Below are positions 1 through 51,834 of a stretch of DNA of 64,000 nucleotides, one piece after another; positions within the stretch are counted from its first letter, which is position 1, and the number at the start of each line of letters is the position of its first letter. Origin of the DNA: a virus; IMG/VR virus record IMGVR_UViG_3300017759_002599, positions 7,303 to 71,302 of that record; one strand, given 5' to 3'. The position numbers and the translations under genes are program-made. The notes beneath the pieces were generated by a model. The model saw only the letters and a program-made list of their open reading frames with translations, ran no database searches and was not told where the DNA came from.

Positions 1-374
1 GCGCTGATGACCCGACCCATTGCATTGACCTTCGCAAACGATTCAATATCATCTGTGCTTGGTATCTGTAGTCGGTTACCACCTGCGTCGATGTGCAGTG
101 GTTTCACTGGTGCAGTCTGTCGCAGTGTGATGTTGGTTTGCTTGCTTGCCTTGATGAACTTCAAGAACTTGTCCATCAGTGCAATGTGGATGAAGCCCTC
201 TTCCTCAATAGCCCCTGTTTCCACTGGAAACCTCTTGCGTAGGTAGTGGTTGGCATAGGCCACCTCAACCGTCAAGAACGCACCACTGCAAGCAATCCGC
301 AGGTCGTCCAAGTCCTTTGCGAAGGACATGAGGAACGACTGAAAATCATTTCTGTTCACTGTTACTTTTACCAT
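1..374 (-). CDS. Putative DNA sliding clamp (PCNA-like), 3' end outside window
   Basis: Open frame MVKVTVNRNDFQSFLMSFAKDLDDLRIACSGAFLTVEV...LMDKFLKFIKASKQTNITL from ATG 374 with GGTGA RBS; clamp-like pattern; in the same gene run as RFC. Confidence 0.55.
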   Translation of the reverse strand, partial: MVKVTVNRNDFQSFLMSFAKDLDDLRIACSGAFLTVEVAYANHYLRKRFPVETGAIEEEGFIHIALMDKFLKFIKASKQTNITLRQTAPVKPLHIDAGGNRLQIPSTDDIESFAKVNAMGRVIS

Positions 375-27824: not shown

Positions 27825-27845
27825 GTTTTAACCTCAACCCTTTCT

Positions 27846-27865
27846 CTCTTTGCCGACTTATAAAG
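27846..27865 (-). promoter_or_regulatory. Early promoter repeat copy
   Basis: ctctttgccgacttataaag. Confidence 0.75.
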
Positions 27866-27909
27866 CAAACAGCCCAATGTAGCGTTTTTCCTCGGATGTG
27901 CGCCTTGCG

Positions 27910-28290
27910 TATGAGCATAGCACAAAGGCATAGCGTGGACGTAGGAAGGCAGGGTTTCGTATGCAACACCCATATGGGTTGGGTTCAAGGGACGCTATTC
28001 ATGGGGGCTTGCGTATAACGAGGTGTTATGCTATAGGCGTGGGTAATGAGTCGCCGTCATAGCACGTATGCGTGCTATGCGTAGGCGAGGGGCGAGAGCC
28101 GTACGCTATGCCCCCACCTCCGCCCACGCAAGTACCCCGTTCTATAGACCGTGGCACTGCGCCATAGCACAGACCCATAGCACGACCCATAGCACACCCC
28201 TTAGGCGGAGGCATAGCATAGCATAAACCCATAGCACTTCTTTTAGTCACGCACACCTTTCCGAGAAAAAAAATTTCAAACAAAATTTTT
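27910..28290. repeat. CATAGCA(C) repeat array at the strand switch
   Basis: CCATAGCAC at 28162, 28175, 28187, 28229; catagcatagcat at 28212; inverted pair 28058-28079; A/T tract follows. Confidence 0.8.
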
Positions 28291-28314
28291 ATGGTGAAAC
28301 TACCTCCCAATACC

Positions 28315-28593
28315 ATGAGCCAGTCATTTGACATAGCATGGTCTATGTTGAAACAAGACTTCCGTGAGGCAATGGAGTCGCAAGTAGACCCACAGGGTCA
28401 ATTGGCGCAAGCATTGGCTATGGCTCGACAGCAGGAACCGGCTCCACCTATCCAGTTTGCACCAAGACTACCGCAACCTCAAACAATGCCTCAAGACCCA
28501 CGTCAAACAACCCTACCGCCTGAATTTATTGGTGATGCAACTGTAGGTCGTGACTTCAGTCAAGCCTTGCAAAACATCAAACCAAAGCGGTGA
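28315..28593 (+). CDS. Small late protein with FDIAWSMLK tag
   Basis: MSQSFDIAWSMLKQ; TTTTTATG about 25 nt upstream. Confidence 0.7.
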   Translation: MSQSFDIAWSMLKQDFREAMESQVDPQGQLAQALAMARQQEPAPPIQFAPRLPQPQTMPQDPRQTTLPPEFIGDATVGRDFSQALQNIKPKR

Positions 28594-28597
28594 ACGA

Positions 28598-29356
28598 ATG
28601 AACGCCTTTGACATTGCTTGGTCTTTGCTCAAAGAAGACGACACAATGGAATACGGTGAACAAGCAGTAAGTCGGCAAAGAGTGTTACCAAGAGGTGGCT
28701 CGTCTTTTATGCCTGTGCTTGCTGATTCAGCAGAAATCATAGACAGGGAATTTGCGGAAGGTTTAGCACAACGAATGGACACAAGCCCACCTAAAACACC
28801 AACAAGAGTTGTACGTGGTCGTGAAGGTAATTGGGGTGATGAATACACTCTTGAAGATGATGAAAGAAAAGAATACTCAAGACTAAGCGGGATGATAAGA
28901 AATCCCGAAGAAATGAATGAGCGTCGAAGAGTATCAACTGCAAATCCAACATTATCAAGCCTAATGGCTGAAACACAAAGTAATGAACGACGCAAAGGGC
29001 ATTATGAAAAACTGTTAAACACAATATTGCAAAACAACATGAACATTCATTCAACTTCAAGAAACTATGCATCTAAACCATTTCATCAAAAATTTCAACG
29101 TCGTTTAGCACCAAATATTGAAATGCATACACGGTACAATAGTGTTGGGCGACCGGAATTTGTTTACATGAAAGACCCGATAAAAGACTCAAAACAACAA
29201 TCAGTACGTAACGTACAAGGTTGGGGTGACTTACAACCCGACTACAATACGTTACCAATGGTCGATTTTCAAGATACAATCAAGCCACGATTAAGTAATT
29301 CGTTTAAACAACAGTATGATACAAGGCAAACAAGGCTTGACGACTTCGGTCAATAG
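28598..29356 (+). CDS. Tagged late protein with GNAT-like segment and C-terminal PIP box
   Basis: MNAFDIAWSLLK; ERRKGHYEKLL...SKPFHQKF; ends QTRLDDFGQ. Confidence 0.75.
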   Translation: MNAFDIAWSLLKEDDTMEYGEQAVSRQRVLPRGGSSFMPVLADSAEIIDREFAEGLAQRMDTSPPKTPTRVVRGREGNWGDEYTLEDDERKEYSRLSGMIRNPEEMNERRRVSTANPTLSSLMAETQSNERRKGHYEKLLNTILQNNMNIHSTSRNYASKPFHQKFQRRLAPNIEMHTRYNSVGRPEFVYMKDPIKDSKQQSVRNVQGWGDLQPDYNTLPMVDFQDTIKPRLSNSFKQQYDTRQTRLDDFGQ

Positions 29357-29934
29357 AACAATTGCTGTGGTTGAAACAACGGTTCTTCCGTTTTCTCGTC
29401 TTCCGTTTCCGATAAACGGCGAATAATGTCTTCTGTAAACGGTGTTGTGTTGTGAACAAGCGTTTCGTCTTTGTTATCAACAATAACGTGGTCATTATCA
29501 AGCGTTTTGATGGTGTCACGCAACTCTTCACTTAGTGCAGTTGGTAGTTGCAGTGTACCTTTGAGAAGTCGAAGGTCGTCAAGTACGCCTCGCAACTGCT
29601 TTTGCATGGTTTCTGACCCTTGTTTTGCTTTTTCAGCCATTTGCATAGAGCGATTTTGTTGGTCTGATTTTTGTTGTTGGCGCATTTGGTCTTGATGCTG
29701 ACTTCTTTGTTGTGATAAAGCGGCTAAAGATAAACCTGTTTTGGTTTTGTCTTCAACCATTTTAGCCCCTACTTTTTTTGCACCTTCTTTAAGAGCACCA
29801 GCACCAGCACGAGCAACGTTTGCAGCACCAGTAGCAAGTGCTCTTGCACCTGTGGCAGTTGCTACTTTACCTGCTATTCCAACTAAAGGTGCTAACAATG
29901 GTAACGCTTTGACCACCAATACCTTGTCGCCCAT
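29350..29934 (-). CDS. Hypothetical protein with Ala/Gly-rich amphipathic N-terminal region
   Basis: VLVVKA followed by LPLLAPLVGIAGKVATATGARALA. Confidence 0.7.
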   Translation of the reverse strand: MGDKVLVVKALPLLAPLVGIAGKVATATGARALATGAANVARAGAGALKEGAKKVGAKMVEDKTKTGLSLAALSQQRSQHQDQMRQQQKSDQQNRSMQMAEKAKQGSETMQKQLRGVLDDLRLLKGTLQLPTALSEELRDTIKTLDNDHVIVDNKDETLVHNTTPFTEDIIRRLSETEDEKTEEPLFQPQQLFY

Positions 29935-29985
29935 GCCAGTCGTAGACATCGGTATTTCTAAATTGTATCGTTACCTCGCACGAGT

Positions 29986-31656
29986 ATGGTCGGAGCGAAG
30001 CCTGTACTTGTTCGCAAGCAACAGGCTCGTCTTAGTGACTTTTATCCAGTCACATTGCCTGAAGTACAAACAGCAACACAACAAATGCAAAACATACCTG
30101 CAACAACTCAAACCAAAGCAAGCAGTTGGCATCAGCATAACGAAGATTTAGAAAATAACGATGGAAACATCACAAATGTAAATCAAATTTATTATGAACC
30201 AAGAGAAGGATATTTTCCTGAAGTTTCTCCACTGTCGGCTGAACAGCAATTAAACATGCATCTTGACGAGTTGCGAGCAAAAACCGAAAACCCTGAAGAT
30301 ATTGTACAACAATTCATTGAAGACATGCGTAATGAAAAAAATGTTCACAATGTTCCTCGTAAATTGAGAGAACGTACAGAAAATGAACTATTGCGTAATT
30401 TACGTCCGTTACCTGTAAGCGAAGTAAACGAAAAATTTGGTCGTATACGATTTCCAAGTAAAGAGTTTGCTAATGAAAACATACCTGAAAATATGGTTGA
30501 TAGTTTGCGTCGTACTAAGCAATTCCGTGATTACTTTGGCCGTCAAACTACGTTGCCTGAACATTTTCCCTCATATCATACCGAAGATTGGCTTGACCCT
30601 GAAACCGGATTGGTGCGTGAAGGCGCAATAGCCCCTGTAACGGCTGTGCGTCGTGCAAATAGTCGTGACATTATGGGTGGTATGGCGCAAACGGGTGGTG
30701 GATTGATACCGCTTCCAAACAGTAGCAATGAAAGTTTTGAAAATCGAAATTCGGGTCGTCGCCCTATGCTTATGCAATCACAAAACCCACCCCTTGAACA
30801 CTTCCAAAGTGGGTACTTTTTGACTACACCATATGTTGCTGATTTAGACAGGTCTGTTACAGTCCACGATACAGATGCACTTATTGGGGTTCGTGGATTT
30901 GGAGCACCGAGTGGTGATGTATTCCAAGCACGTCCAGCAGGTGAGGCAAAAGAGGGCGCAACGGAAGCCGTTGTACACAGTCGTATAGCCCCTGAACGGC
31001 TTGTACCTCTTCGATACAATGATTCGTATCAAAATTTGATAAGAGGAGATGAAAATAGTAAACCAAGTTTTCTTACGCTTAATGACATAAGAAATTTCTT
31101 TCGACCAAAAACATCACAGGATTTTCGTCAAGCCATAGGTCGAGAAAAAGATGATACAATATCACGTAATCAAAAATTTGACTACATTCGTGACCATTTA
31201 CCGTTTATGCAGTTTGCTCCCCCTGAATTTAATGAAATGGTCGATAGGCATGGAATGCCGGCTGCGCTTACAGACGATGAAAAAAATCGTTTTTTAGAAG
31301 CAATGGAAGAAGAAGATAACAATTATCATAGAGATATGACAAATAAAAAACGTAAATTAGGAAATAAACTTGCCCTGATACGAAACTTGGGAGCAACTGA
31401 TTGGTGGGACAGACCAGATAAGGGAGATGTGCTTACACTACGTGACCTAACCTTACCTTCAATATGGGGTGACCCAATGGCGGCATTGGCAAACGCACCA
31501 CCACACACTAAGGATGCACTTATTGAATTGTTCAACCACAGATTTAATACCAATTACCCAACCAACAAAAAATTGAAAGAAATGGAAGAATCAATAATGC
31601 CTACCATTCCAAAAAAGAAGACACAATTTGAAGAACTAAATGAATTATTTGGATGA
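29986..31656 (+). CDS. Late protein with PIP box and possible ADP-ribosyltransferase-like module
   Basis: VLVRK-QQARLSDFY; AVRR..GGLIP..GYFLT..LIGVR..EAVVHSRIAPERLV. Confidence 0.7.
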   Translation: MVGAKPVLVRKQQARLSDFYPVTLPEVQTATQQMQNIPATTQTKASSWHQHNEDLENNDGNITNVNQIYYEPREGYFPEVSPLSAEQQLNMHLDELRAKTENPEDIVQQFIEDMRNEKNVHNVPRKLRERTENELLRNLRPLPVSEVNEKFGRIRFPSKEFANENIPENMVDSLRRTKQFRDYFGRQTTLPEHFPSYHTEDWLDPETGLVREGAIAPVTAVRRANSRDIMGGMAQTGGGLIPLPNSSNESFENRNSGRRPMLMQSQNPPLEHFQSGYFLTTPYVADLDRSVTVHDTDALIGVRGFGAPSGDVFQARPAGEAKEGATEAVVHSRIAPERLVPLRYNDSYQNLIRGDENSKPSFLTLNDIRNFFRPKTSQDFRQAIGREKDDTISRNQKFDYIRDHLPFMQFAPPEFNEMVDRHGMPAALTDDEKNRFLEAMEEEDNNYHRDMTNKKRKLGNKLALIRNLGATDWWDRPDKGDVLTLRDLTLPSIWGDPMAALANAPPHTKDALIELFNHRFNTNYPTNKKLKEMEESIMPTIPKKKTQFEELNELFG

Positions 31657-33983
31657 GTGATACAATGTTTACAAATTGGAATCGTAAAGCAAACAAAGAA
31701 ACTCGTTTGAATCCGTTATCTATAGATGACATTGATGCTCTTACCATAGCCACATTGCATGGTATGGGTACAACGCCTGAACAATTTCGAGATAATGTAA
31801 AGCAAGACGTGACTGAAGATGCGATGAAGCAAGGCGAAGCGATTATGCGTAGAAATCCAAAAGTGCAAATGCCTGATTCGCATTTTAAATTGCAAGGTGC
31901 TCAAGAGCAACAAATGATGGACGATTTAGAACTTCAAATTCCTGAATTTAAATTTAATGAACAACAAGCCAAAACAGCAGGTGGATTGCGAGAAATGGAA
32001 CGTAATCAAGCAGTAGAACGAGCACGTAACGCATACAAAAAAACATACAAAGACCACGTTATGCAAGCCTTTGACAAGCACAAAGCCTTCATGCAAAGTC
32101 TTGGTAACCAACCAATGAGTGCTCAAGAGTTTATGCAACATCCAAAAGTGCCTTCCTTTACTGATTATTACAAGCAAGTACAAGAAGGCACAGCACCCGG
32201 TTCGGAATACGCCGACGAACATCCGTTTGCATTGACGCACCCTGATGAGTTTACGGAGCAACTAAACCAATCAAGAGAGAACAATCCCTATGGACAATTT
32301 TTTGCTGATTACGATGAAATGCGTCACATGACACCATTCATCCCCGTCATCACAGGCGAGCCAATGGACTTGGCAATGGACACCTTGCTTAAGTTCCAAA
32401 GTGCCGCACAGCGTCGTATTTACAATCAAATACCATTTGCCGAAGAAGTGGGAAGTATAGATGATGTTGTTGCAATGCGAAATATACCAGTGCGTCGTTT
32501 GGAAAGTGGTGGTATGCCGTCATTTAACATGCCAGTGCCACTTCGTGGTAATCGACCCGGTGACCCATTACAATTTGAACGTGACATTCATGCAAAAGGC
32601 GGTGCAACTATACCCGGTTTTACACCCGATTATGAAATACCTGATGACCCTCGTAAAGAAATTCAAGGGACATTTGTATATCCATTAGATGTTTCATCAT
32701 TAGCACCTGAACGATTCACATCAAGTGGTAATCCTGATTTTTTATCAACAGGTTATCCTGATATGAATAGAGGTATAGGTGATACTGTTACATTGGGCAT
32801 ACTTGAAAAACCTGAATGGCGTGCAGGTCAAGCACATGGAAGAAGCCAACCTGAAGGGTATCAACCATTTGGTTTTGACAAAGATGCATTTGTGCGTTTA
32901 GATGGTGGCTTAGGTGTAAGCGCAGTTGGTCCTCGTGAAGAGTGGAGCGCATTAGCCCGACGACTTTCACCTGCATTTGCAGAACCAAAAATTGGTGATG
33001 AAGCACTCCATCTGTATGACTACCCCGCACTTTACAGAACATTATCAAAACTTCCTGTTACCACAACTGCAAGTAATCGTAACCCTTTGACTGGATATAA
33101 ACCTACAAACATAGATTTTCTTCTTGACCGCATGGGCGGTGCAAGGGTGGTGACTGGTGAACCAATGGACTTGGCAATAGATGCGTTGCTTAAGCGTGAC
33201 AAGATATATGACCCCAATGCTGAAAACAAAGGTCAAGAAGGAGTTGACTGGCATCCCGGTGAAGAAGGAGTTGATTGGGATTCAGCAGTTTCATCATCAC
33301 TTCATCCGAGTCATGATTTAACACAAAGGCATCCTTTTGACTATGATATGCACGAGTACGACCATCATGCTCAAAAATTACTCAACCTTATGCGAAACCG
33401 TGATGTTGCACACCTTCAAAATAATGAAAATCCAATGACCGAAGATGAGCAATTTGATTTAATGGATGCACAACAAAAATTACAGGCTTCTATTCCTAAA
33501 AATACACATTTTCCAAGTATTCAAAATGCCGTTGGATATGATAAAGACGGAAACAAGATAAGCACATTTGGTGACGGAAGACCAAAGTTTAACGAAGGTT
33601 CTCCACGCTATCAAGAACTAATTGGTGATAGACCAACAGTTCCTATTCACACAGAAGGTTCTTTTTACGGAGTTCCATTCAATGAGAAAACAGGCTTTAC
33701 CCGTAGCGAACCAATGGCATTAGCAATAGACGCATTGCTCAAAGACCTGTCACCTGAAGCCAAGCGTCACAAGTTGGAGTACGACAAGAAGTACGAGTCC
33801 AGTCCTGAACGAGTCAAGTATCGAGAGGAGTTGAACCGTGAGCGACGGCGACGTGGTATCTACGGCAGTGGCGACCACATGGACGTGTCGCATACAGAAG
33901 GTGGCAAACTAACACTGGAATCTGAACACGACAATCGAGCAAGGCATTTTAAGGACAAAGGGACACTACGACCCAGTGATTGA
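31653..33983 (+). CDS. Modular polyprotein with three EPMxLAxDxLLK linkers and a C-terminal HNH-like module
   Basis: Linkers at 32352, 33153, 33702; YREELNRERR..GDHMDVSH..ESEHDNRAR. Confidence 0.85.
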   Translation: MSDTMFTNWNRKANKETRLNPLSIDDIDALTIATLHGMGTTPEQFRDNVKQDVTEDAMKQGEAIMRRNPKVQMPDSHFKLQGAQEQQMMDDLELQIPEFKFNEQQAKTAGGLREMERNQAVERARNAYKKTYKDHVMQAFDKHKAFMQSLGNQPMSAQEFMQHPKVPSFTDYYKQVQEGTAPGSEYADEHPFALTHPDEFTEQLNQSRENNPYGQFFADYDEMRHMTPFIPVITGEPMDLAMDTLLKFQSAAQRRIYNQIPFAEEVGSIDDVVAMRNIPVRRLESGGMPSFNMPVPLRGNRPGDPLQFERDIHAKGGATIPGFTPDYEIPDDPRKEIQGTFVYPLDVSSLAPERFTSSGNPDFLSTGYPDMNRGIGDTVTLGILEKPEWRAGQAHGRSQPEGYQPFGFDKDAFVRLDGGLGVSAVGPREEWSALARRLSPAFAEPKIGDEALHLYDYPALYRTLSKLPVTTTASNRNPLTGYKPTNIDFLLDRMGGARVVTGEPMDLAIDALLKRDKIYDPNAENKGQEGVDWHPGEEGVDWDSAVSSSLHPSHDLTQRHPFDYDMHEYDHHAQKLLNLMRNRDVAHLQNNENPMTEDEQFDLMDAQQKLQASIPKNTHFPSIQNAVGYDKDGNKISTFGDGRPKFNEGSPRYQELIGDRPTVPIHTEGSFYGVPFNEKTGFTRSEPMALAIDALLKDLSPEAKRHKLEYDKKYESSPERVKYREELNRERRRRGIYGSGDHMDVSHTEGGKLTLESEHDNRARHFKDKGTLRPSD

Positions 33984-34482
33984 TATGACACCAATGCAAG
34001 AGGCTTGGTTGTTGTTGAAGATGCCTATTGTTGATAATTCTATACAACAAACAAGTGATAATCGTTTTGAAGCACAATTTCGTGACCCAAAAACAAACAA
34101 AATTTATCCTATGATTGCAGAAGAAAACCCAAAATACGGAGTAATGAATGTAGGTATTTATCCATCACAGCCGACAATTTTAGGCACTCCTACGGCTCTT
34201 GATGCAATGGATTTAACAGATGATGACATAAATGATGATGTAATAGATTCACTCGGTCTTGGATTATCCAATGCTGAATTAAGTGTAGCCGACCGTTATG
34301 GCGATGGGCATGATTCAGACAACTATTGGGAATCAAATATGACGTGGACGCATCCTCTACACAGAAGACGTGGATATGCTACAGCGTTGTATGATTTAAT
34401 AAATCAAATCAGTCCTCATCAAATAAGACCAAGTGATAATCAATCTGATGAAGGAAAATTGTTTTGGTCTAAAAAGAGGTGA
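33976..34482 (+). CDS. Tagged GNAT-family acetyltransferase
   Basis: PMQEAWLLLK-MPIVD; THPLHRRRGYATALY...QSDEGKLFW. Confidence 0.8.
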   Translation: MIDMTPMQEAWLLLKMPIVDNSIQQTSDNRFEAQFRDPKTNKIYPMIAEENPKYGVMNVGIYPSQPTILGTPTALDAMDLTDDDINDDVIDSLGLGLSNAELSVADRYGDGHDSDNYWESNMTWTHPLHRRRGYATALYDLINQISPHQIRPSDNQSDEGKLFWSKKR

Positions 34483-34487
34483 AAACA

Positions 34488-34643
34488 ATGACACGATGTA
34501 AGATGCTTGACGAATGGTTTGACGACGAATCAAAGCGTATTGATTCTATAGAAGCGAAGACTGGGATTGAATTTGTAACTGGAAAGCCAAAGTCAAAAAA
34601 GTCACTTTGGTCACGTTGGTCAAAGTTATGGTCATTCAAATGA
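34488..34643 (+). CDS. Small protein with amphipathic Trp/Lys C-terminus (not in ORF track)
   Basis: GAGGTGA RBS; MTRCKMLDEWFD...SLWSRWSKLWSFK. Confidence 0.55.
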   Translation: MTRCKMLDEWFDDESKRIDSIEAKTGIEFVTGKPKSKKSLWSRWSKLWSFK

Positions 34644-34760
34644 GTACTACTCTTAATTATTATATAATTGTAGTACCTATGAATAAATGACTATTGTATT
34701 GGTCAATTTAATGACTATACCTGTGAATAAAGTGAATAAAGCGGTAAAGTGACCATAGCG
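34641..34760. other. Non-coding element B, related to element A
   Basis: gtactac-(AT core)-gtagtac; blocks shared with 26295-26476. Confidence 0.6.
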
Positions 34761-34802
34761 AAACGTTTATGTTGCCCATTAATTTGACCAACAGTGAGAA
34801 CG

Positions 34803-35330
34803 ATGCAGGGCAGTACTGAAAATTCGGACGCTGAAATACGACTGATGGGACTTATTTTGTCGCAATCCGCACTGGTTGGATTAGCAATTGGTATCTTTGA
34901 CAAGGACATTTGGCTTAACCACGACGACCCAATGGTAAACGGTTTTACCTACGCAATGGCTGCATTTTTTGTACAAGGTATTGCATATTATTTCTTCAAG
35001 ATGTTCTTTGAACAGAACATGCAAGAGCGTGTACGTATACAACAATCCGAGCGACAACGCCAAACTCGATACCGTTCATTGCAAACCAACTTCGATAACC
35101 GTCGTGCCGACATGGAGTTGCGTATGCAAGAAGCGCAACTTGAACGTGAACTGCGATGGATGGAAGAAAACCCCGGTAAGATGCCTCCATCATGGGGCGT
35201 ACAAGGTGGCTCCCCTTCATTGGTAAGCCAGTACGATGAAAATCAACTCAATGTATATCCTCCAAAACACGAGGCTATTGTAGATAAACCAATTAACTTG
35301 GGTATCAAAGAGGAAGAAAAGAAAGAGTGA
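34803..35330 (+). CDS. Membrane protein (2 TM helices and coiled coil)
   Basis: LMGLILSQSALVGLAIGIF and FTYAMAAFFVQGIAYYFF, followed by a charged helix. Confidence 0.8.
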   Translation: MQGSTENSDAEIRLMGLILSQSALVGLAIGIFDKDIWLNHDDPMVNGFTYAMAAFFVQGIAYYFFKMFFEQNMQERVRIQQSERQRQTRYRSLQTNFDNRRADMELRMQEAQLERELRWMEENPGKMPPSWGVQGGSPSLVSQYDENQLNVYPPKHEAIVDKPINLGIKEEEKKE

Positions 35331-35341
35331 GGTGAACCCGC

Positions 35342-35596
35342 ATGGGTCGCATATTCAAAACGCCAAGTGATGACAGCACCGAAGCCACACTTCGTGCCAT
35401 GCATACGCAAAACACACTTGACAATTATTACGAAAAAGGTTGGGGATGGCTTCGTACCTTACTGTTTACTTTATTTGCTATTTTAGCAACAAGCCTGTGG
35501 GAAAAACAAACAGATGCATCGGTATGGGACAACACCGTAAACTGGTTTGTAGGTAAAGTTGAAGACTTTGGTAACTGGGTTTTGGGGCTGTTCTAA
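35342..35596 (+). CDS. Small membrane protein
   Basis: GWLRTLLFTLFAILATSLW TM helix; amphipathic C-terminus; GAGGTGA RBS. Confidence 0.8.
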   Translation: MGRIFKTPSDDSTEATLRAMHTQNTLDNYYEKGWGWLRTLLFTLFAILATSLWEKQTDASVWDNTVNWFVGKVEDFGNWVLGLF

Positions 35597-36312
35597 TGGT
35601 AGACCCCGCAGGTTCAGCATTGGTCGGTGTCATGGTATGGGGTCAAGCCCTATACAACTCATGGCGACCACGACGTGTTGGAATCTATGGTGCTGGTATG
35701 GTTGGAAAGACAACGCTTGACCGTTTTATGACAACGCCCGGCGAAATGGAAGACATATCTGAAGAAGAACGAACTATGCATCGTAAAATGCTTGGTAAGT
35801 ACAAAATGCCAAAACCAACACGTAAGCGTGTAAGTTGGAAAGGACACAAGCGGGTTGTGTACTCTTCCGATGTAGGTGGACAGGAGCGTTTTTGGAATCT
35901 TTGGATTGATGATATGGTTAATCGACAAGTTGAAGCGGTAGTTTACATGTTTGATGACCGAGCATTCAAAGGTGGTAATGACGCATTGCAACAAATTGCA
36001 GGTTTCAAATTCCTTGTTGATGCCATTCTTAATCGACAATACCGTTATCGTAACTGGAAAGCCCGACGTAAAGGTAAGAAGTACATGCCTAAACTGATTA
36101 TGTTGGTTGCAAACAAGGCTGACCGCTTTTTCGATGACACTGCCGCAATGTTATGGCAACAAGACCGTATAGGTGAACACAAGATATTCGACCCATTTCG
36201 AGATGATTTAATACGACTGCAACGTGGAGGTATACCTACACGACGGTCGTTTATGGCTACAAGAATAGGGTGGAACGTTGAAAACACAATGGTCGATTTA
36301 TTGACAGCATAG
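35596..36312 (+). CDS. Ras-superfamily (Arf/Rab-like) small GTPase
   Basis: G1 GAGMVGKT, G2 T (ERT), G3 DVGGQERFWNLW, AVVYMFD, G4 VANKAD, G5-like FMATRIGWNV; hydrophobic N-terminal helix. Confidence 0.92.
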   Translation: MVDPAGSALVGVMVWGQALYNSWRPRRVGIYGAGMVGKTTLDRFMTTPGEMEDISEEERTMHRKMLGKYKMPKPTRKRVSWKGHKRVVYSSDVGGQERFWNLWIDDMVNRQVEAVVYMFDDRAFKGGNDALQQIAGFKFLVDAILNRQYRYRNWKARRKGKKYMPKLIMLVANKADRFFDDTAAMLWQQDRIGEHKIFDPFRDDLIRLQRGGIPTRRSFMATRIGWNVENTMVDLLTA

Positions 36313-36320
36313 GTGAGAGC

Positions 36321-36485
36321 ATGACAAAAACAAACATTACGTCTGTAGGAAACAAAACACAAAGTCTACGTACGGTTATTCCGTTGTGGATTGTAAAAGT
36401 CTTGAAACTGTCAAAGGGTGACAAGATTGAATGGGATGTTGATGTACACAACAGTACGATTGAAATTAAGAAGGTGAAAGAATGA
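36321..36485 (+). CDS. AbrB/MazE-like DNA-binding protein (not in ORF track)
   Basis: MTKTNITSVGNKTQSLRTVIPLWIVKVLKLSKGDKIEWDV...IEIKKV; GGTGA RBS. Confidence 0.8.
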   Translation: MTKTNITSVGNKTQSLRTVIPLWIVKVLKLSKGDKIEWDVDVHNSTIEIKKVKE

Positions 36486-37423
36486 GAATGGTGTTCGATA
36501 ACAACACAGGAATGCAACGATTGGGTAGTTCAAATGAAGCACACTTGTATGCACTTAGCCAACAGGGTAATGAATCGTTGAATTATGCTACACTTATGGA
36601 GCAAGCCACTGCACAATCGGCTATGCAACAAATTGCATCGGAGCAAAACCTTGAAGTTCCAAAAGTCAATTTTTATCCATCACGTCATCCTGACCCACAC
36701 AAAGCACGACGCAAAGATATTCGTCAAGCACGTAAGTTACTTTCACCAGCAAAACGTGCATGGTTCAATCCTATGCGATGGTTGTTTGGACAAAAGTACC
36801 GATACGACCGTCAAGCCAGTATGTGTGTTGTTGATGGATGCGACTGTGCGAAACTGATTCAACACGACAATTTGTACGCAAAAATTACTGATGAAGAAAC
36901 AGGATATTCATTATGGCAATTGTATTGGCAAAATCCTGTTACAAAAGAAGCCGAAGCGTTTGTTGCAAAAGAAAAAGTCATGAATGGACGTAAAATGAAA
37001 GGTACATACTGTCCTGAACATTTGCATTTGTATCATCTTCTCAACAGATGGGAAGCCGAAGAAGACAAGTTACGTGAAGCAAATCCACGTCGTCTACGTG
37101 ACCGTGTAAAGAAAGGCGTGTCGATGGTGACTGTACCTGTTGCTACCATTAAGAAAAAAGACCCAACGCCTGAATTTTTGCAAAAGTACGAAGAGTTTTT
37201 TGCTATGCTTGAAAAAGACAGCAAAAGCACAAAAGGTATTTCAATTCTTAATTATGAAAATCCCGTTACTGGAATGAATGATGTAACAATGATTGTGTTT
37301 GACTTGCGAATTTTTCAACAAGAGTTGGCTATGATGAACCAACCAACCCCTGCTTTTCAAACAATTCTGAATCAACAGGTGCAACAAAACACTCTTGAAG
37401 AAGTACAACTTGGGGGAGAGTGA
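36482..37423 (+). CDS. Hypothetical protein with C/H metal site
   Basis: CVVDGC...YCPEH; amphipathic RAWFNPMRWLF. Confidence 0.75.
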   Translation: MRMVFDNNTGMQRLGSSNEAHLYALSQQGNESLNYATLMEQATAQSAMQQIASEQNLEVPKVNFYPSRHPDPHKARRKDIRQARKLLSPAKRAWFNPMRWLFGQKYRYDRQASMCVVDGCDCAKLIQHDNLYAKITDEETGYSLWQLYWQNPVTKEAEAFVAKEKVMNGRKMKGTYCPEHLHLYHLLNRWEAEEDKLREANPRRLRDRVKKGVSMVTVPVATIKKKDPTPEFLQKYEEFFAMLEKDSKSTKGISILNYENPVTGMNDVTMIVFDLRIFQQELAMMNQPTPAFQTILNQQVQQNTLEEVQLGGE

Positions 37424-38046
37424 GTCTGATGTTAAATCTTAATCAAAACACCAATGCCAACGGTGCGCTTAATCTTGGTGTAAACAGTGCTCAACCCGCT
37501 ATGCAGACACAAAATCCATTTCTAAATCAGCAAGCACAAATGGGAGCACAGGGTGCGTTTATGACAGGTATGTTAGGCGACAATGCACAATACATGAATC
37601 AACCTGTTATGCCTCCATCGGAAATTGAAATTCAAATTATGTTGTTGCGTGGTATTGTACCTGTAGACCGATTTGTAGCAAGTGAATCTATGGCAACAAT
37701 GGTACAAATGTTCAACGACCTTATGACGTTTAGTGTGCTTGAAGTATTCAAAAATGCAACCTTTATTCCTGATGATGATGGTAATCTCAAAATGGACATT
37801 ACATCATTGCCTTCTCATTTGCAAACTATGAGTTCAGATAACATTGCATCCAAGTTTACGGCTCTCCAAAGTACGGCCAATCAAAACATACAGACTGCTG
37901 AACAACAGCAAATGCAGTTGAATCAAATGGCACAACAATCTATGATGGGTGGAGCATTAAATGCGGCATTGCAAAATGAAGGCATGATGCAAAAAGTAGG
38001 TGGCGGTGTAGGTACATTCGCTCGTACACTCTTTACAGGACGATGA
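37420..38046 (+). CDS. Hypothetical Q/M/N-rich protein
   Basis: Coupled ORF; amphipathic C-terminus VGTFARTLF. Confidence 0.75.
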   Translation: MSLMLNLNQNTNANGALNLGVNSAQPAMQTQNPFLNQQAQMGAQGAFMTGMLGDNAQYMNQPVMPPSEIEIQIMLLRGIVPVDRFVASESMATMVQMFNDLMTFSVLEVFKNATFIPDDDGNLKMDITSLPSHLQTMSSDNIASKFTALQSTANQNIQTAEQQQMQLNQMAQQSMMGGALNAALQNEGMMQKVGGGVGTFARTLFTGR

Positions 38047-38050
38047 TACT

Positions 38051-38293
38051 ATGCAAGATAAGAATTACTTACCATACGGATTTTCAACCTCTTCGCTTAA
38101 TGTCATGAACCCACCACGCAGTGTTATTATTGACATGATTATGGTGCAGTTCATTTCAATCATTTTAACAATGATTGCTATTATGCTGTTTAAGGGTAAT
38201 GAGTTGTCATCTACAACGTTGTCATACTTCCTTGTTGCTCTTTTCGGTAGTGTCTTGATGGTCACTGGAATCTATTCGAGAATCACTCGATAG
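38051..38293 (+). CDS. Small 2-TM membrane protein (holin-like size)
   Basis: Two hydrophobic helices in 80 aa. Confidence 0.75.
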   Translation: MQDKNYLPYGFSTSSLNVMNPPRSVIIDMIMVQFISIILTMIAIMLFKGNELSSTTLSYFLVALFGSVLMVTGIYSRITR

Positions 38294-38530
38294 TGTCCAC
38301 TTACGCAAAGGGCATGTAGAATTTTTCAATTTTAATTTTGTCTTAAGATAGCAACCACAGGCTGTGCATCGAGTACCAAAGTGTGGGCAAGGGCGACATA
38401 TGCGAAGTCGATGCAGTATTGTATCATCATCAGCGTAGTCTTTTCTTGATATGTCCTTCATGGCTTGCTTGATGCTTCTAAACGAATCGGTTGAGATTGG
38501 AACTCCAGCGATTCGTTTGTTCTTCCACAT
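38222..38530 (-). CDS. Cys-rich protein (DUF6171-like)
   Basis: RLRICRPC...CTACGCYL..K......CPLRKW. Confidence 0.7.
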   Translation of the reverse strand: MWKNKRIAGVPISTDSFRSIKQAMKDISRKDYADDDTILHRLRICRPCPHFGTRCTACGCYLKTKLKLKNSTCPLRKWTLSSDSRIDSSDHQDTTEKSNKEV

Positions 38531-38590
38531 AGTCCTCTCCAAAGATACAATCACCATAATTGTTTTCAAAGGGTATGCCTTAAGACAGTC

Positions 38591-39271
38591 ATGGCGGATG
38601 AGCGTGTTGTTAAACGTTCATGCGCTTTTTGCATGGATGAAGACCGTGAAGAGTTGGAAGAACAACTGCTTCAAGGCTACATTTCACCGAAGCAATTGGA
38701 TAAGGATAAAGGGTGGAGGTCGAACACATCCGACCGTCATTATCGCAACCACATGGGTGAATATCACATAGCCGCAAATGCATCTTGTGCTGTATGTACA
38801 TCACCCCATCGAGCCGACTACGAAAGTATTTATTTTGCTGACGGCTCACAAAGTGAAGTTATTGCACAAGAATTGGGAATCAGTGAGAACTTAGTTTACC
38901 AACACATGAAACATCATTTCCAACCACTGGTGCAAAAAACTGCGGCTCTTGAAATAGCGTCGTTTGCTGTCGGTAATGAATTGAACCTACTACGTAGCAA
39001 TGCTGAACATTTGAATTTAAAACTAACAGAACTGTTGAACGAAGGCACTGTTCACGAAGATGGATTTGTTCGTGATGCGGTTTCTTTGCATAAGGAAGTA
39101 AGAGAAACTGTCAAAGACTTGATGCGTTTCCAAGACCAATGGGGTCCACAAGGTGAAACACAGCAAGTCAATCAAACATTCAATATTTTGCAGGTTGAAT
39201 TAAACAAGGAAAGTCCTGAAACGTGGGCAAGAATCAAAGCACAATTGCAAGAAAACATGGGGGTTGAATAA
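38591..39271 (+). CDS. Putative terminase small subunit (duplicated Zn/HTH)
   Basis: Two CxxC...HTH...HxxxH units and a helical oligomerisation-like region; upstream of TerL in the same arm. Confidence 0.55.
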   Translation: MADERVVKRSCAFCMDEDREELEEQLLQGYISPKQLDKDKGWRSNTSDRHYRNHMGEYHIAANASCAVCTSPHRADYESIYFADGSQSEVIAQELGISENLVYQHMKHHFQPLVQKTAALEIASFAVGNELNLLRSNAEHLNLKLTELLNEGTVHEDGFVRDAVSLHKEVRETVKDLMRFQDQWGPQGETQQVNQTFNILQVELNKESPETWARIKAQLQENMGVE

Positions 39272-41430
39272 TGCCAATGATGGGAAGAGGTTCTGATACC
39301 CGAATGTATGCACCACGTAGTGAATCGGAAACGATGTATTCTTCGGCCAATGAAGACGGTGGAAAATACAGTGGTAACACCGCCGAAGAAAAAGAAAAGA
39401 AAGAAGAAAACCGCAAGTTGCGAGCCGAAGAACGCAAGCAACGACGTGATAAAATAAAACACATTAAGATTCGTTCAACTCAAGGATTGAAGGGTGAAGA
39501 GTCACCTGTTCCTGAAGATGATAGCAACAAGCAAGATGACGAGCGTGAGATTAGCCTACAAGGTGGTCCTGCTGGAAGTCGTGGTAATCTTCTCGACCTT
39601 GCAACAGGTGCAAAGTCTGGTACAGGTTCAGCAATGACTGGACCGTTGCCAATTGCAATGAGTGAGCCAATGGATGGTGCTTGGAGTAGTTTGTTGAAAT
39701 ATAATGAGAAATATAATGATGACCCTTCTTTACCTCATAATCAACCACCATATCCTGTTTCAATGAACACAGTCAAAAGACCTTGCGACAAATGTGGTAA
39801 TTTAGCAAATATCACTTATTATGGGAATAATCCTGATTACTTTGAATCTTACTGTCATTTTTGCAGAACGGGAAAAACGCCTCCAACACAAGAAGATTTT
39901 GACAGATTAAAAGAAAATATACAGGCAAGTGAGCCGATGAAGGGTGCTTGGAGTTCGCTACTCAAGGCTGTGCTTGGTGACCAAAGAGGCGCTGTGTTTA
40001 ACCCTCGATTTAGAACAAGTGAATCACCAAGTCAAAAAAACATAGCGGAAGGTCAAGCACATGGAATGGTTGGCACACGACGTGCGGCTGGAGAACCAGC
40101 AGAACGTCGTAGAAAACAATTAGCAATGGGTCAAAAAAGATTGGACGCAGGTATTGATAAAAGATTGATGTACAGTAACCCTGACTATTACGACTACTTA
40201 GTGGCTCGTACTCAACTCCCTCCTTCACAACAGCAAGAATTACCTTACCCTGCTGTGGAAAGAAGAAATATTGAACGATTAGGAGGAGGAAATTTCGGTG
40301 GTGGGCGACGTAATTCAATTGCACAACGTGCAGGGTTTGATACAAGTCCCGCACAACTGCATAATTTGCAACGTCTTTCTACAACAATGATACCTCAAAA
40401 GTTTATGATGCGAGATGACGCAGTTGATTATTCAGGTTTAACCCCATCACCAATTCCAAACATGGTTTATGATTCAAATATGAACCTTATTCCTGACCCT
40501 CGTCTTGAACAAAAATCCAGTGACTTTGTATTGGTGTCTGATATTCTTAAGCGTGATACACCGAATAAAATTCAATCACGTCGTCGCCGTGAAAAGCGAC
40601 AACAGTTCCGTCCATCTACAGGTCAATTCAAGCGACCACCCGGTGGTATGAACCCTGTCGGTGCAACCATGCGTCGATTCCGAGCACGTATGCGTGGTAT
40701 CAAGGGGGGTAAGAAAACAGGATTGATGAAGCCACACTTGTCTGTTGAGATGAGCCACCGTGGTATCGCTACTAAGCAACCCATGTCAAAAGACCCACAG
40801 AAGTATCGACAATACATGGGTCAATCCGAGGCTCGTAAAATACTTGGTAATGTACGTTCAACATTTTCACCGCACGCTCGATACGGTGAACGTTCCGTTA
40901 CAGCAGGTCCAACAGGTGCAGGTCGTCTTGGTGGATTGATGCCCGGACAATCAGGACAAATGCGACGACCTTCGCTCAAACAAATCGGAGTGCGTCGTCC
41001 ACGACTACGACGACCCCGTAATCCTGTCATGGCTCCCGCACCACCAATGGGTGTACCAAGTCCACCTATGCAAGCACCATCAAGTATCTCATCGCTACCC
41101 CAAGCATCGACTCCAATGATGATGAGTGAGGAGCGTGCAGAAAGTGATTTACTTAAAGGGCGTAATAAAAATCTTCGTTATCACAAAATCAACCTTCTTC
41201 GTCGTTTGATAGCAGCACAAGAACGTGCTGGAAAACTCGGTAAGTCAATGCAAGGCACACGTTCAGCAATGGAAAATGGACACGTACCAAGTCACCCTGC
41301 GGGTGTACACCAGCATGAAGATGAAGATGAGAAAAATGATGGACCTACGCAGAATCTTGAAACAAATTCAAGTCGTTTAGGTCTTGACCCTGCTGGATAT
41401 TTGACTTCAAAGCGGGGGCATATGGGATGA
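39271..41430 (+). CDS. Modular low-complexity polyprotein with two SEPMxGAWSSLLK linkers
   Basis: Linkers at 39661 and 39928 bracket a CDKC..CHFC module; Arg-rich module after SDILK. Confidence 0.85.
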   Translation: MPMMGRGSDTRMYAPRSESETMYSSANEDGGKYSGNTAEEKEKKEENRKLRAEERKQRRDKIKHIKIRSTQGLKGEESPVPEDDSNKQDDEREISLQGGPAGSRGNLLDLATGAKSGTGSAMTGPLPIAMSEPMDGAWSSLLKYNEKYNDDPSLPHNQPPYPVSMNTVKRPCDKCGNLANITYYGNNPDYFESYCHFCRTGKTPPTQEDFDRLKENIQASEPMKGAWSSLLKAVLGDQRGAVFNPRFRTSESPSQKNIAEGQAHGMVGTRRAAGEPAERRRKQLAMGQKRLDAGIDKRLMYSNPDYYDYLVARTQLPPSQQQELPYPAVERRNIERLGGGNFGGGRRNSIAQRAGFDTSPAQLHNLQRLSTTMIPQKFMMRDDAVDYSGLTPSPIPNMVYDSNMNLIPDPRLEQKSSDFVLVSDILKRDTPNKIQSRRRREKRQQFRPSTGQFKRPPGGMNPVGATMRRFRARMRGIKGGKKTGLMKPHLSVEMSHRGIATKQPMSKDPQKYRQYMGQSEARKILGNVRSTFSPHARYGERSVTAGPTGAGRLGGLMPGQSGQMRRPSLKQIGVRRPRLRRPRNPVMAPAPPMGVPSPPMQAPSSISSLPQASTPMMMSEERAESDLLKGRNKNLRYHKINLLRRLIAAQERAGKLGKSMQGTRSAMENGHVPSHPAGVHQHEDEDEKNDGPTQNLETNSSRLGLDPAGYLTSKRGHMG

Positions 41431-43595
41431 TTCGTATTCAGCCTCCACGTTTGCTCAAAGCATGGAGTATGATGCTTCACCCACCCGAAGGACCAGTCAA
41501 TGTTCGCAATCCACCTGCCCCAACATTTCGTCCACCGCATGAGCCTGATATTCCCGCTTTTGCACACAACGGTCGTGGAGATGTTATTGAAGGTGAGTTT
41601 GATTCAAGTTCAGGCCCGTTAGCGTATAAAACACAACACGGTAATTTTTATCATGGAATTGACGCTTTAGCAATGCAACTCGCTGATTTTTTGAATAAGA
41701 CAGGTAAAGGTGACATAGACCCTATTGCGGTGATTAACAAGGCTATTGATAATTTTAATCGCTCTCACACACATGGACATCACCATGAATTACCACCGTT
41801 TGACAACTTAGCATGGCGAAAGATACGAGCAAATCAACTACCTGCTGGTACAACATCAAAAGACGAGGAAGGAAAAGAAATTACTGACCGTCAAAGTCGT
41901 ACACACAACAATACGCTGATTACAACACTTACCAACAAAAATCCAGACCAAACACCACATGGTCGATTTATTGAATCGTATTACATTCCATTTCATCAAA
42001 ATCTATTTCATTTACTACAGGACATGGGTTATGAAGACCGTCAAATCAAAGGTTCTCTCAAATCAGGTGTAACCTATCCTTATGTTTATGCAAGACATAC
42101 TGCACCGCAGGGTTGGGCGTATTCAAGCAAAGGAGAGCACCCTGATACGTACACCAGTGAAATGATGGCAAATGCCCCTGAAGGGTATTTTCCTGAACAG
42201 CAAAGTGTACACACATGGGAAACAGTGCATCACTTACCTGACATTTTCTTTTATCCATCAAAAAAGAATGAACATAAAGATATTATGAGTGGGGGTGAAG
42301 CACCGACAAAACTTGTATCGGCGGCTCACGCTATGATTGACCAAGCATTAGAGCAGGGTGGTATCGAGTCCATTCCTGATGTACCAGTTACACTCAACAC
42401 AGGTACACTTGGCTCTCCAAACATGATTCAACGAGGACTCCGTGAAATTCTTGGTAACAACGACCTCAAAGAAGCACTTGTCAAAGACATGGCACATGTA
42501 CCTGCTATGATGTATTTGTTTGGACGCAGTTTTCAAGGTAGTTTCAAAAAATTGTATAACTACATGATGGAAAAATATGGTGCGCCCGAAGACGTACTTT
42601 CAGCCGAAGAACATGGCAAGTACTTCAGGGCAGGGGAAAAGGGCGGTCAAGGTTTGCACAAAAATGCAAAACGTGTCATGTCGGTTGCACGTTCTTCGGG
42701 TCAAGGAGAAAATGAAAATCGTAGTAAGTTTGGTGAACATCAAATTACATCCGATGAAATTGAAGTTATGGGGCTACCGTACAGCGAACAGCGACTTGGA
42801 CAAGTAGACCGATTCCGTAATGTTATCGAAGCATTAGCCAACCACCAAGCCGAATCACGAGGCCACACTGTGCAAATGGGTATCGGTGAAATTCCAACAG
42901 ACCCAATGCGAATGCAAAACATACACGGTTATCCTATTCGTGACCCTGAAACTGGTGAGTTTCCTGCACCGATATTGGATGAACACATGGAAGCGTATTT
43001 TCACACTATTGATGATTTTGCGCCAAACAAAGAAGGAATGTCCCAGCCGGAAGGTGTACCTCCCGTTGAACAGGCAAGAACACCTCCGCCTGTTCCAACA
43101 CCACAGCAAATTCGTCCTGATGTTCAACCGGCTGGGACACCTACTCCTGAATTTCAGCAATTACGACCCGGTATTGCTGACTTCACACCAGCGCAATTCC
43201 GTGAAATGTTGCAAATAGCAGGGGCGACCCGACCGCAACCAATTAGCGATGCTCCTTTGACCGAATTAGAGGCAAGGTCACAGCAAGCCTTATCAGACCC
43301 ACGCCAACGTCTGCTAACTGATTATATGAAGGCCGAAGACATGCACCTTCCACTTATGGATAGACTCATGAAGGCTCTTGAACGAATGCAATACAAAGAA
43401 GCAAGCCTTGATGGTGACGTTTCTACACACATTACCCCCTCACTACAATCACCTGTAAATCTTGCAAAATACACAGGATTGACCAGTAGTGAAGTTACGG
43501 CCATACAACACACAATGGGCGACTGGCATAACATTGCAAAGTCATACAATGTCAAGCCTCAAGTTGTAAAAATCATAAAGATGAATTTAAGGTGA
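41427..43595 (+). CDS. Large hypothetical late protein
   Basis: 722 aa; RLLKAW at N-terminus; QRLLTDYMK near C-terminus. Confidence 0.85.
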   Translation: MIRIQPPRLLKAWSMMLHPPEGPVNVRNPPAPTFRPPHEPDIPAFAHNGRGDVIEGEFDSSSGPLAYKTQHGNFYHGIDALAMQLADFLNKTGKGDIDPIAVINKAIDNFNRSHTHGHHHELPPFDNLAWRKIRANQLPAGTTSKDEEGKEITDRQSRTHNNTLITTLTNKNPDQTPHGRFIESYYIPFHQNLFHLLQDMGYEDRQIKGSLKSGVTYPYVYARHTAPQGWAYSSKGEHPDTYTSEMMANAPEGYFPEQQSVHTWETVHHLPDIFFYPSKKNEHKDIMSGGEAPTKLVSAAHAMIDQALEQGGIESIPDVPVTLNTGTLGSPNMIQRGLREILGNNDLKEALVKDMAHVPAMMYLFGRSFQGSFKKLYNYMMEKYGAPEDVLSAEEHGKYFRAGEKGGQGLHKNAKRVMSVARSSGQGENENRSKFGEHQITSDEIEVMGLPYSEQRLGQVDRFRNVIEALANHQAESRGHTVQMGIGEIPTDPMRMQNIHGYPIRDPETGEFPAPILDEHMEAYFHTIDDFAPNKEGMSQPEGVPPVEQARTPPPVPTPQQIRPDVQPAGTPTPEFQQLRPGIADFTPAQFREMLQIAGATRPQPISDAPLTELEARSQQALSDPRQRLLTDYMKAEDMHLPLMDRLMKALERMQYKEASLDGDVSTHITPSLQSPVNLAKYTGLTSSEVTAIQHTMGDWHNIAKSYNVKPQVVKIIKMNLR

Positions 43596-43599
43596 AAGT

Positions 43600-44526
43600 A
43601 TGTCAAATAAACCAATTTTAGTGCTGAAACAAGGTACTGGTGCGACGTTGTTTCAGCAAATAGGAGAAGGTAAAACTCCTTCGGTAAAGGATTTATTTGG
43701 GGTTTTAGGCTCAAGAAAAAAAATAGGTGTGCTTCCAAGACTTGGTGCTCTTGCTGGATTAGCAGGTAAAACTGCCGCCGCAGGTGCTACTGCTTTACAA
43801 ACGGCTCATCAATTACAAAGTGGTAATCTTGCCGCCCCATTGGGAATGGGATATACGTACGCAGGGTATGACCCTACGAGTGCTTTATCAGGAATAACTG
43901 ATATGGCAAATAGAAATGTAAAGAGAAATGAAGGACAACAGGCACGTCCAAGTGGACCTGTTAATGTAAGACACGTTCCAAAAGCACACCAACCCCAAGC
44001 ACCTTCATTTGTAACAGGGCAACAACCTGCACAGCAACCTGCACAGCAACCTGCACAGCAACCTGCACAACAGCAAACAACACCATTTAACCCCGATATA
44101 CTGACACAACCACAATTTAATGTTCCCGGTCAAGCCACACAACAGGCTGGTCATAGCCCAGAAACCGTTGGAAATGCATTTAAACAACAAATAGGAACTC
44201 AAAACGTAGGACAGACTGGACCGTATGCAGCACCAATGCCATCTACTGTTCCTCCTACGAATGTTCAACAAGCGGGAAATGCATTTGCTAATCAAATACA
44301 GTCACAAACAACACAGCAAACACTACCAATGCAACAGCAACCAATGCAACAGCCAATGCAACAAAGTCAATTTAATCCACAACAACCGCTTGACGCAACT
44401 ATGTTTCAATCATCCAACGATTTTATACACGATTTGTTTGACACAATGGGTTCATACTTGTACAAGATGACACCTCATGAAGTAGGTACTTTTGCAGTTG
44501 ATGCCTATTTTAAATTGCGAGAGTGA
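43600..44526 (+). CDS. Gln/Pro-rich protein with Ala/Gly amphipathic N-terminal region
   Basis: PILVLK-QG; QQPA repeats. Confidence 0.8.
   Translation: MSNKPILVLKQGTGATLFQQIGEGKTPSVKDLFGVLGSRKKIGVLPRLGALAGLAGKTAAAGATALQTAHQLQSGNLAAPLGMGYTYAGYDPTSALSGITDMANRNVKRNEGQQARPSGPVNVRHVPKAHQPQAPSFVTGQQPAQQPAQQPAQQPAQQQTTPFNPDILTQPQFNVPGQATQQAGHSPETVGNAFKQQIGTQNVGQTGPYAAPMPSTVPPTNVQQAGNAFANQIQSQTTQQTLPMQQQPMQQPMQQSQFNPQQPLDATMFQSSNDFIHDLFDTMGSYLYKMTPHEVGTFAVDAYFKLRE
44020..44073 (+). repeat. 12-bp coding tandem repeat (QQPA)x4
   Basis: ca(a/g)caacctgca units. Confidence 0.85.
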
Positions 44527-51821: not shown

Positions 51822-51834
51822 TGGCGGTGAAAGT

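Follow-up and report, generated by a model that had tools for sequence, protein, structure and literature searches.

PIP-like motifs resembling clamp-client tails of the presumed host in proteins of a magrovirus-like tailed archaeal virus

Introduction

In phage T4, short hydrophobic peptides at the chain ends bring the late-transcription proteins gp33 and gp55 onto the gp45 clamp. The client pocket of PCNA is occupied by the PCNA-interacting protein (PIP) peptide of the eukaryotic p21 and by the PCNA inhibitor of Thermococcales, with high affinity or in a multivalent manner. Shared N-terminal peptides that target the capsid are carried by the T4 internal proteins and Alt. Here, PIP-like motifs were analyzed in a 64,000-nucleotide stretch of viral DNA (the window), which comprised bases 7303-71302 of the 71.3-kb IMG/VR record IMGVR_UViG_3300017759_002599. 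The motifs were located in a block of plus-strand genes at 28.3-44.5 kb, which lay between the two arms of the genome and upstream of the terminase, portal and protease genes.

Magroviruses, which are uncultured, rank with the most abundant viruses in surface ocean waters, and most of their genes are without a known role. The minus-strand arm of the genome studied here (window 1-27,000 plus the 7.3 kb preceding the window) was a replication module encoding a family-B polymerase (PolB), an AEP-type primase, a PD-(D/E)XK nuclease, an ERCC4 nuclease, an RFC-like AAA+ ATPase and a SNF2 helicase. From 44.5 kb onward, the genes for the large terminase, the portal, an S78 prohead protease and a capsid protein of the HK97 type made up the plus-strand arm. 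A tailed-virus morphogenesis module and a near-complete archaeal-type replication module were found together in a genome of ~100 kb, the complete relatives having genomes of 104-116 kb. The gene set also matched that of the magroviruses, viruses assigned to Marine Group II archaea (Poseidoniales), as given in the published description (PMC5434244). The window was accordingly assigned to a magrovirus-like tailed virus of archaea.

Among the papers listed by a full-text search on archaeal viruses, PCNA and PIP motifs, none dealt with PIP motifs of magroviruses, as judged from titles and abstracts, and the terms 'PIP' and 'PCNA' were absent from PMC5434244 and PMC11706807.

Results

Conserved PIP-like motifs in three proteins

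A preliminary description of the window had named five PIP-like peptides, and all five were confirmed in place. Three of them formed the core of this analysis. QTRLDDF (29327..29347, plus strand) made up residues 244-250 of a 252-residue protein (28598..29356, plus strand), two residues before the stop; this protein belonged to no assigned family and combined the C-terminal PIP-like tail with an N-terminal MNAFDIAWSLLK tag. QARLSDFY (30022..30045, plus strand) occupied residues 13-20 of a 556-residue protein (29986..31656, plus strand), just after KPVLVRKQ. The same protein ended in an ...ELNELFG tail. QRLLTDYM (43305..43328, plus strand) was found at residues 627-634 of a 722-residue protein (41427..43595, plus strand), within a linker. 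Two of the sites were close to a chain end, and the third lay in a segment (residues 626-638) where the predicted local distance difference test score (pLDDT) of the AlphaFold2 model was <50, between confidently predicted parts.

Conservation was followed in the best 80 of 177 matches around a conserved GTPase-like gene (67-99% identity); the 556- and 252-residue families were also sampled as 90%-identity cluster representatives. The first motif of the 556-residue protein was kept as Q[TA][RQ]LS[DN]FY at residue 13 in 26/26 close representatives (60-100% identity). A second Qxx[LI]xxF was located ~35 residues further on (residues 42-52) in 24 of the 26, in many spellings and within an otherwise poorly conserved stretch. 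Since the pattern was spelled in many ways where little else was kept, selection acts on the pattern itself. In the window's copy and in one other representative the second motif had changed by L->A and F->W, so that a decayed copy, QTKASSWH (30109..30132, plus strand), stood where the relatives have Qxx[LI]xxF. The ELNELFG tail (31633..31653, plus strand) corresponded to an LxxLF[GD] end that was present in all 26 close representatives.

The 252-residue family ended in QT[SR]L[NDS]DFGQ in 16 of its 27 cluster representatives. A homologue of the 722-residue protein was present at 80/80 related loci, and the motif [DSE][PT]xQxx[LIM]xx[FYW] stood at the same site in 70 of 79 full-length homologues of 22-97% identity. 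The three motifs were therefore conserved, as the preliminary reading of them as PIP boxes had required, and in each case the flanking residues varied. Judged by these alignments, the conservation is far above chance, and the three peptides are genuine short linear motifs in which selection maintains Q-x-x-[L/I]-x-x-[F/Y].

Likeness to clamp-client tails of Poseidoniales

A first scan of cellular genome contigs with the viral thermosome gave no match. An alignment-based scan with the thermosome succeeded and led to a genome of Poseidoniales, the presumed host order (NCBI taxonomy), after which 41 genomes of the order were sampled. At 26 of the 31 loci read, FEN1 had a Qxx[LI]xx[FWY] end, the exceptions including two wrong open reading frames (ORFs) and two tails with K/R in place of Q. 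The RNase HII tails showed the full pattern in 8/30 loci and a cut-down Qxx[LI]F in 14/30, together 22/30. A second aromatic residue at position 8 was present in none of the 34 full FEN1 and RNase HII tails. The host tails being single-aromatic, the viral Q-[ST]-[ST]-L-x-[DE]-F would represent the local form of the PIP box.

The viral motifs and the host PIP boxes shared the Q-x-x-[L/I]-x-x-[F/W/Y] pattern with a single aromatic, the placement at a chain end and, often, [ST] before the leucine and an acidic residue before the aromatic. They differed in that the viral carriers were not known replication or repair enzymes and that two of the three viral motifs were N-terminal or internal. Further, position 5 was F/L in the FEN1 tails but not in most of the viral copies.

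It was proposed that the three motifs imitate the C-terminal tails found on FEN1 and RNase HII in Poseidoniales. Since the conserved peptides copy the clamp tag of repair enzymes of the presumed host, their carriers probably dock on a clamp too, and clamp docking by mimicry of a host motif is the reading that we favor. From these peptides we infer binding, for which the virus's own clamp or host PCNA may be the target, and a tether or a block may be the purpose.

Two side observations were made on these comparisons. The ...LxxLF[GD] tails of the 556-residue family and the ...LF-x tails seen in part of the 252-residue family (cluster representatives P0073-P0087 and P0088-P0113) were reminiscent of the shortened Qxx[LI]F form in which host RNase HII may end. 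The best cellular matches of the viral thermosome (50-52% identity) were L181 and L182, short contigs of a metagenome-assembled genome labelled alphaproteobacterium; these contigs had probably been misbinned and are of viral or archaeal origin.

Viral clamp and replication micro-proteins

The sliding clamp gene ran off the left edge of the window (3..374, minus strand), where the first 124 of its 253 codons were present; on the whole record it occupied L162:6915-7676. The AlphaFold2 model of the viral clamp (36 sequences) had a pLDDT of 93.7 and a predicted template modelling score (pTM) of 0.89. The best Foldseek matches were PCNAs of archaea, with Pyrococcus furiosus PCNA at the top (1ge8; E 8e-14, TM 0.67/0.71), and a two-domain clamp fold of ~250 residues was supported by both methods. 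No Pfam family was matched at E<=0.01, a phmmer search against PDB recovered no PCNA, and identity to solved PCNAs was 12-15%. Hence, the protein was assigned as a clamp by fold and not by sequence family. The ORF at positions 1-374, for which a viral clamp had been claimed, is thus predicted by modelling to be the start of a PCNA-fold protein.

PIP-like motifs were also found in two small proteins of the replication module, both on the minus strand and upstream of the window. A 100-residue ORF between the nuclease and primase genes (G000:C1:2675-2977, L162) had one motif, and RQTT[LI]xx[FW] was present in this ORF at 13/13 PolB loci. A 77-residue zinc-ribbon micro-protein (G000:C1:4293-4526, L162), whose gene overlapped the PolB end, had two motifs in tandem; ORFs of 77-82 residues right after PolB had such tandem motifs in 7/13 loci and in this record. 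PolB itself was without a PIP-like tail at the PolB loci examined, so a separate hook subunit would be possible. The main motifs match the motif of the micro-proteins adjoining PolB and primase. The two sets shared RQTTLxxF and QKRLTDY-type spellings, and the tandem layout resembled that of the 556-residue family. They differed in size and location, the micro-proteins having 77-100 residues and lying beside PolB and primase, whereas the carriers had 252-722 residues and lay upstream of the terminase.

An alternative purpose of binding was considered. The peptides might act on PCNA as blockers, with multi-hook proteins saturating the trimeric clamp of the host and shutting down host replication. 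The two N-terminal motifs and the conserved ...LF[GD] end of the 556-residue family, the tandem motifs of the PolB-adjacent micro-protein and the mimicry of host client tails would all agree with such an action. Moreover, the structural search with the viral clamp also recovered 5da7, in which an archaeal PCNA is bound by a small inhibitor protein, that of Thermococcales. Nevertheless, the virus had its own clamp and clamp loader as well as its own replication micro-proteins with the same motif, so that a blocker would have to be selective and leave the viral clamp unaffected. The carriers were also large and had conserved domains beyond the hooks. Small PCNA blockers are cellular or plasmid-borne regulators, whereas the viral carriers, known here from sequence, are large multidomain proteins. 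A blocking role was considered unlikely.

Motif carriers

The preliminary description had presented the carriers as GNAT- or ART-like enzymes. No such domain was found in the products of 28598, 29986 and 41427 with Pfam, PHROGs or the PDB profile search, and this part of the description was not supported. The sole hint of a GNAT domain came from the neighbouring ORF 33976-34482 (Acetyltransf_13, 16.9 bits against a cut-off of 22.8), which was without a PIP-like motif. Among the 19 block proteins compared with Pfam and PHROGs, no family was found beyond weak matches, and the motif carriers had none. The 556-residue protein was likewise without a family in the PDB profile search, and ESM Atlas gave no usable match for it.

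The 722-residue protein, encoded two genes upstream of the terminase, was modelled by AlphaFold2 from 41 sequences with a pLDDT of 81.5. The model consisted of a confident N-domain (residues 9-535), a disordered proline-rich linker, in which the motif was found, and a confident C-terminal three-helix bundle (residues 681-722). The N-domain had no match in PDB (Foldseek, best E 0.13) or in BFVD (best E 0.025). The last 40 residues resembled small helix-turn-helix (HTH) DNA-binding domains, the likeness being weak (VIA wide, best Z 4.1). The PDB profile search with the family gave nothing usable, its best match (E 0.029) being due to low complexity. An RNA-polymerase-like identity of the protein, indicated by ESM Atlas at 0.85-0.87, was below the bar of the tool and was rejected. 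In the family of the next gene (43600-44526), any Qxx[LIM]xx[FYW] was present in 23/79 copies; the chance level was estimated by hand and no claim was drawn from this count.

It had also been suggested that the carriers are virion cargo that acts soon after injection, and this suggestion was found to be unsupported. A 1933-residue protein (51781-57582), which had no Pfam family, was encoded between the portal and prohead protease genes. By analogy with the usual site of large head-associated or ejected proteins, it may be more likely to be cargo than the motif carriers.

N-terminal tags

Dozens of unrelated proteins of this arm in the relatives (loci L082-L161) started with the tag M-x-x-F-D-x-A-W-x-L-L-K. 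In the window, N-terminal copies were found at 28604..28633 (AFDIAWSLLK, plus strand), 28324-28353 and 33991-34020. Internal copies of the form [ST][GS]EPM[DE]xAWSxLLK were found at 32361-32393, 33162-33194, 33711-33743, 39667-39699 and 39934-39966, in the 776- and 719-residue proteins. In complete relatives the AWxLLK tag was nearly confined to this arm. Among the relatives, 94 tagged proteins had >=100 residues; when 93 of these were compared with Pfam (one member of the 722-residue family being omitted), 87 had no match and three exceeded the cut-off, two with DUF6321 and one with HD_4. The AWxLLK tag could be a targeting or processing signal.

A second tag, M-x(0-4)-[KP]-[VI]-L-V-[RL]-K, was present on the 556-residue, 722-residue and 308-residue (43600) proteins, with sites at 29986-30018, 41427-41460 and 43600-43630, and also at 29949-29908 on the minus strand. 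It started nearly all 79 copies of the gene that followed the 722-residue gene in relatives.

The tags gave rise to another explanation of the PIP-like peptides, namely that these are docking tags for some other shared partner, such as the capsid interior, scaffold or portal, in which case the carriers would be packaged as cargo, or another conserved viral protein encoded in the block, for example the Roc-like GTPase. The motif in relatives often directly followed the commoner AWxLLK tag, which in some of them led straight into RQTTLGEF. This tag was also carried by many unrelated small proteins of the arm and recurred within the 776- and 719-residue proteins, and the block immediately preceded the terminase, portal and protease genes. 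The arrangement may recall the shared N-terminal targeting peptides of the phage T4 internal proteins, where, as here, many unrelated small proteins of one arm start with one peptide. That likeness, known from sequence alone, concerns the AWxLLK tag and not the PIP-like motif. Further, a capsid tag fails to explain why the same Qxx[LI]xxF is shared by the replication micro-proteins and the C-termini of FEN1 and RNase HII in the presumed host. Only a minority of the tag-bearing proteins carried a PIP-like motif, hence tag and motif were separable. A shared partner other than a clamp was thus regarded as improbable.

Additional observations on tagged proteins were as follows. Matches to HD_4, a RelA/SpoT-type hydrolase (two, one over the cut-off), and to DUF6321 (two) were located at L110:958-1407, L118:5767-6186, L156:5736-6050 and L120:7764-8180. 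Words similar to ...LLK were seen near the N-termini of the prohead protease, the 1933-residue protein and the capsid protein. The C-terminal 70 residues of the 31653-33983 product matched phrog_6437 (residues 701-769, window 33753-33959, E 3e-17). The KRHKLEYDKKYE... module of this product also occurred on its own in small tagged proteins of relatives (L154:5692-5994, L160:444-728).

Pattern counts, weaker motifs and points against clamp docking

The two remaining peptides of the preliminary description, which it had called weaker, did not behave as the three main motifs did. RQTTLPEHF (30541..30567, plus strand) was located at residues 186-194 of the 556-residue protein, in a conserved domain segment. 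In its homologues at 13 loci only QxTLP[EQ] was kept, and the position of the aromatic read H, L, M or D-W. RQTTLPPEF (28501..28527, plus strand) was located at residues 71-79 of the 100-residue product of ORF 28291-28593, with the aromatic one residue out of register; homologues were found at 5/80 loci, three of them near-identical. Conservation with varying flanks was observed for neither. Both peptides belong to a separate conserved element, QTTLP, kept as QxTLP[EQ] in the homologues of RQTTLPEHF, and both are probably not PIP boxes. Accordingly, the PIP reading stood for QARLSDFY, QTRLDDF and QRLLTDYM, which behave as selected PIP-type peptides, and was probably wrong for these two.

Pattern counts were compared with a background of 2000 per-protein shuffles, as the preliminary description had proposed. 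Qxx[LIM]xx[FYW] occurred 9 times in the window outside the block against 7.90 expected. The narrower QxxLxx[FY] occurred 4 times in the block against 1.64 expected (P=0.07). The word RQT[TR]L, chosen post hoc, was found 3 times against 0.01 expected, a count reached in 0/2000 shuffles. Generic counts were at chance and only the post hoc word was enriched. A bulk enrichment of PIP patterns was rejected from the counts, both for the window and for the complete relatives. Of 50 distinct Q[TS][TSRK]L contexts found across relatives, 24 had an aromatic at +6 against a background of 7.7% (binomial P 3e-14); this pattern was also picked post hoc, and some of the 50 contexts were homologous. A DNA-level repeat was rejected as well: the motif copies differed in their codons, hence their likeness is at the peptide level.

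Several results weighed against clamp docking by the three motifs. The generic Qxx[LIM]xx[FYW] was at chance in the block (5 against 3.97 expected, P=0.36), and three complete relatives had just 4-5 pattern matches each per ~35,000 residues. Only one of the five motifs fitted the textbook eight-residue consensus Qxx[LIM]xx[FY][FY]: this was QARLSDFY, also the sole motif in the window with a strict QxxLxxF[FY], while QRLLTDYM has Y-M and QTRLDDFG has F-G at the end. Conservation was incomplete in that the other 11 of the 27 representatives of the 252-residue family ended in a variant ...LF-x tail. Among seven distant members of the 556-residue family, two kept the Q and five read K-[SA]-T-L-x-D-[FY]-G without it. 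AlphaFold2 drew residues 625-661 of the 722-residue protein as a single long helix, hence QRLLTDYM could be structural. The carriers were encoded outside the replication module and had no recognizable DNA-acting enzyme domain. Finally, the choice of Poseidoniales as the presumed host order is based on gene content and published magrovirus descriptions rather than on a direct link.

Some of these results would also agree with the absence of any special function, the peptides being chance matches in Q/T/L-rich, partly disordered proteins and their conservation reflecting structural constraint. The generic counts were those expected from the shuffles, and the helix drawn over the 722-residue motif and the loss of the aromatic from the homologues of RQTTLPEHF, a peptide within a conserved domain segment, point the same way. 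Other matches in the window, which served as negative controls for the conservation of the main motifs, were clearly due to chance: QNTLDNYY (35342 ORF) kept the pattern in just 21/79 homologues, and QGRISRFL at the portal N-terminus was without its Q in the two complete relatives compared at this site. However, in the main motifs the Q, L/I and F positions were kept while the residues between and around them varied freely, and motifs were placed at chain ends. The 722-residue motif persisted down to 22% identity between homologues, and the motif was identical in type to the host client tails. Chance was thus considered very unlikely as the explanation of the three main motifs.

Other features of the window

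A Roc/Ras-like P-loop protein (35596-36312; Pfam Roc, 18.5 bits, under the cut-off) was present in 80/80 loci at 67-99% identity and was flanked by three small membrane proteins. At a distance of 7-8.7 kb on the upstream side of the GTPase-like gene, at ~27,000 in window coordinates and in the divergent gap between the arms, at least 8 related contigs came to an end. This site may be a genuine terminus of the genome or a hypervariable locus at which assemblies break; the contig of the window continued through it (26,900-28,300).

Discussion

We proposed that each motif docks its carrier into the client-binding pocket of a PCNA-type ring. If so, members of the 556-residue family would have up to three hooks per chain, formed by the two N-terminal motifs and the ...LFG end. 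The 722-residue protein would combine a hook with its HTH-like, possibly DNA-binding end.

A use of a viral clamp as a landing pad for non-replication proteins, with late functions tied to replicated DNA, would be shared with gp33 and gp55 of phage T4. The T4 proteins differ in belonging to a bacterial-type virus system and in using another peptide, and the RNA-polymerase-like hint for the 722-residue protein was rejected here. A broader proposal, which we consider decidedly doubtful, is that the whole magrovirus arm is a clamp-centred toolkit, in which unrelated proteins carry one to three host-mimicking hooks and the 722-residue protein couples replication to a late step. Under this proposal, tandem N-terminal PIP boxes together with the ...LFG end would suffice for all three sites of a PCNA ring. 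Clamps remaining on newly replicated viral DNA would be exploited by the 722-residue protein for, as examples, packaging or late expression, which would give archaeal viruses an equivalent of the late programme that phage T4 couples to its clamp.

Should the peptides bind PCNA, this would provide a first functional handle on a set of orphan magrovirus proteins. Clamp docking through these motifs, if true, would mean that an archaeal virus mimics a host motif outside its replication genes. The single-aromatic PIP flavor of Poseidoniales would also serve as a rule for finding more clamp clients in the lineage.

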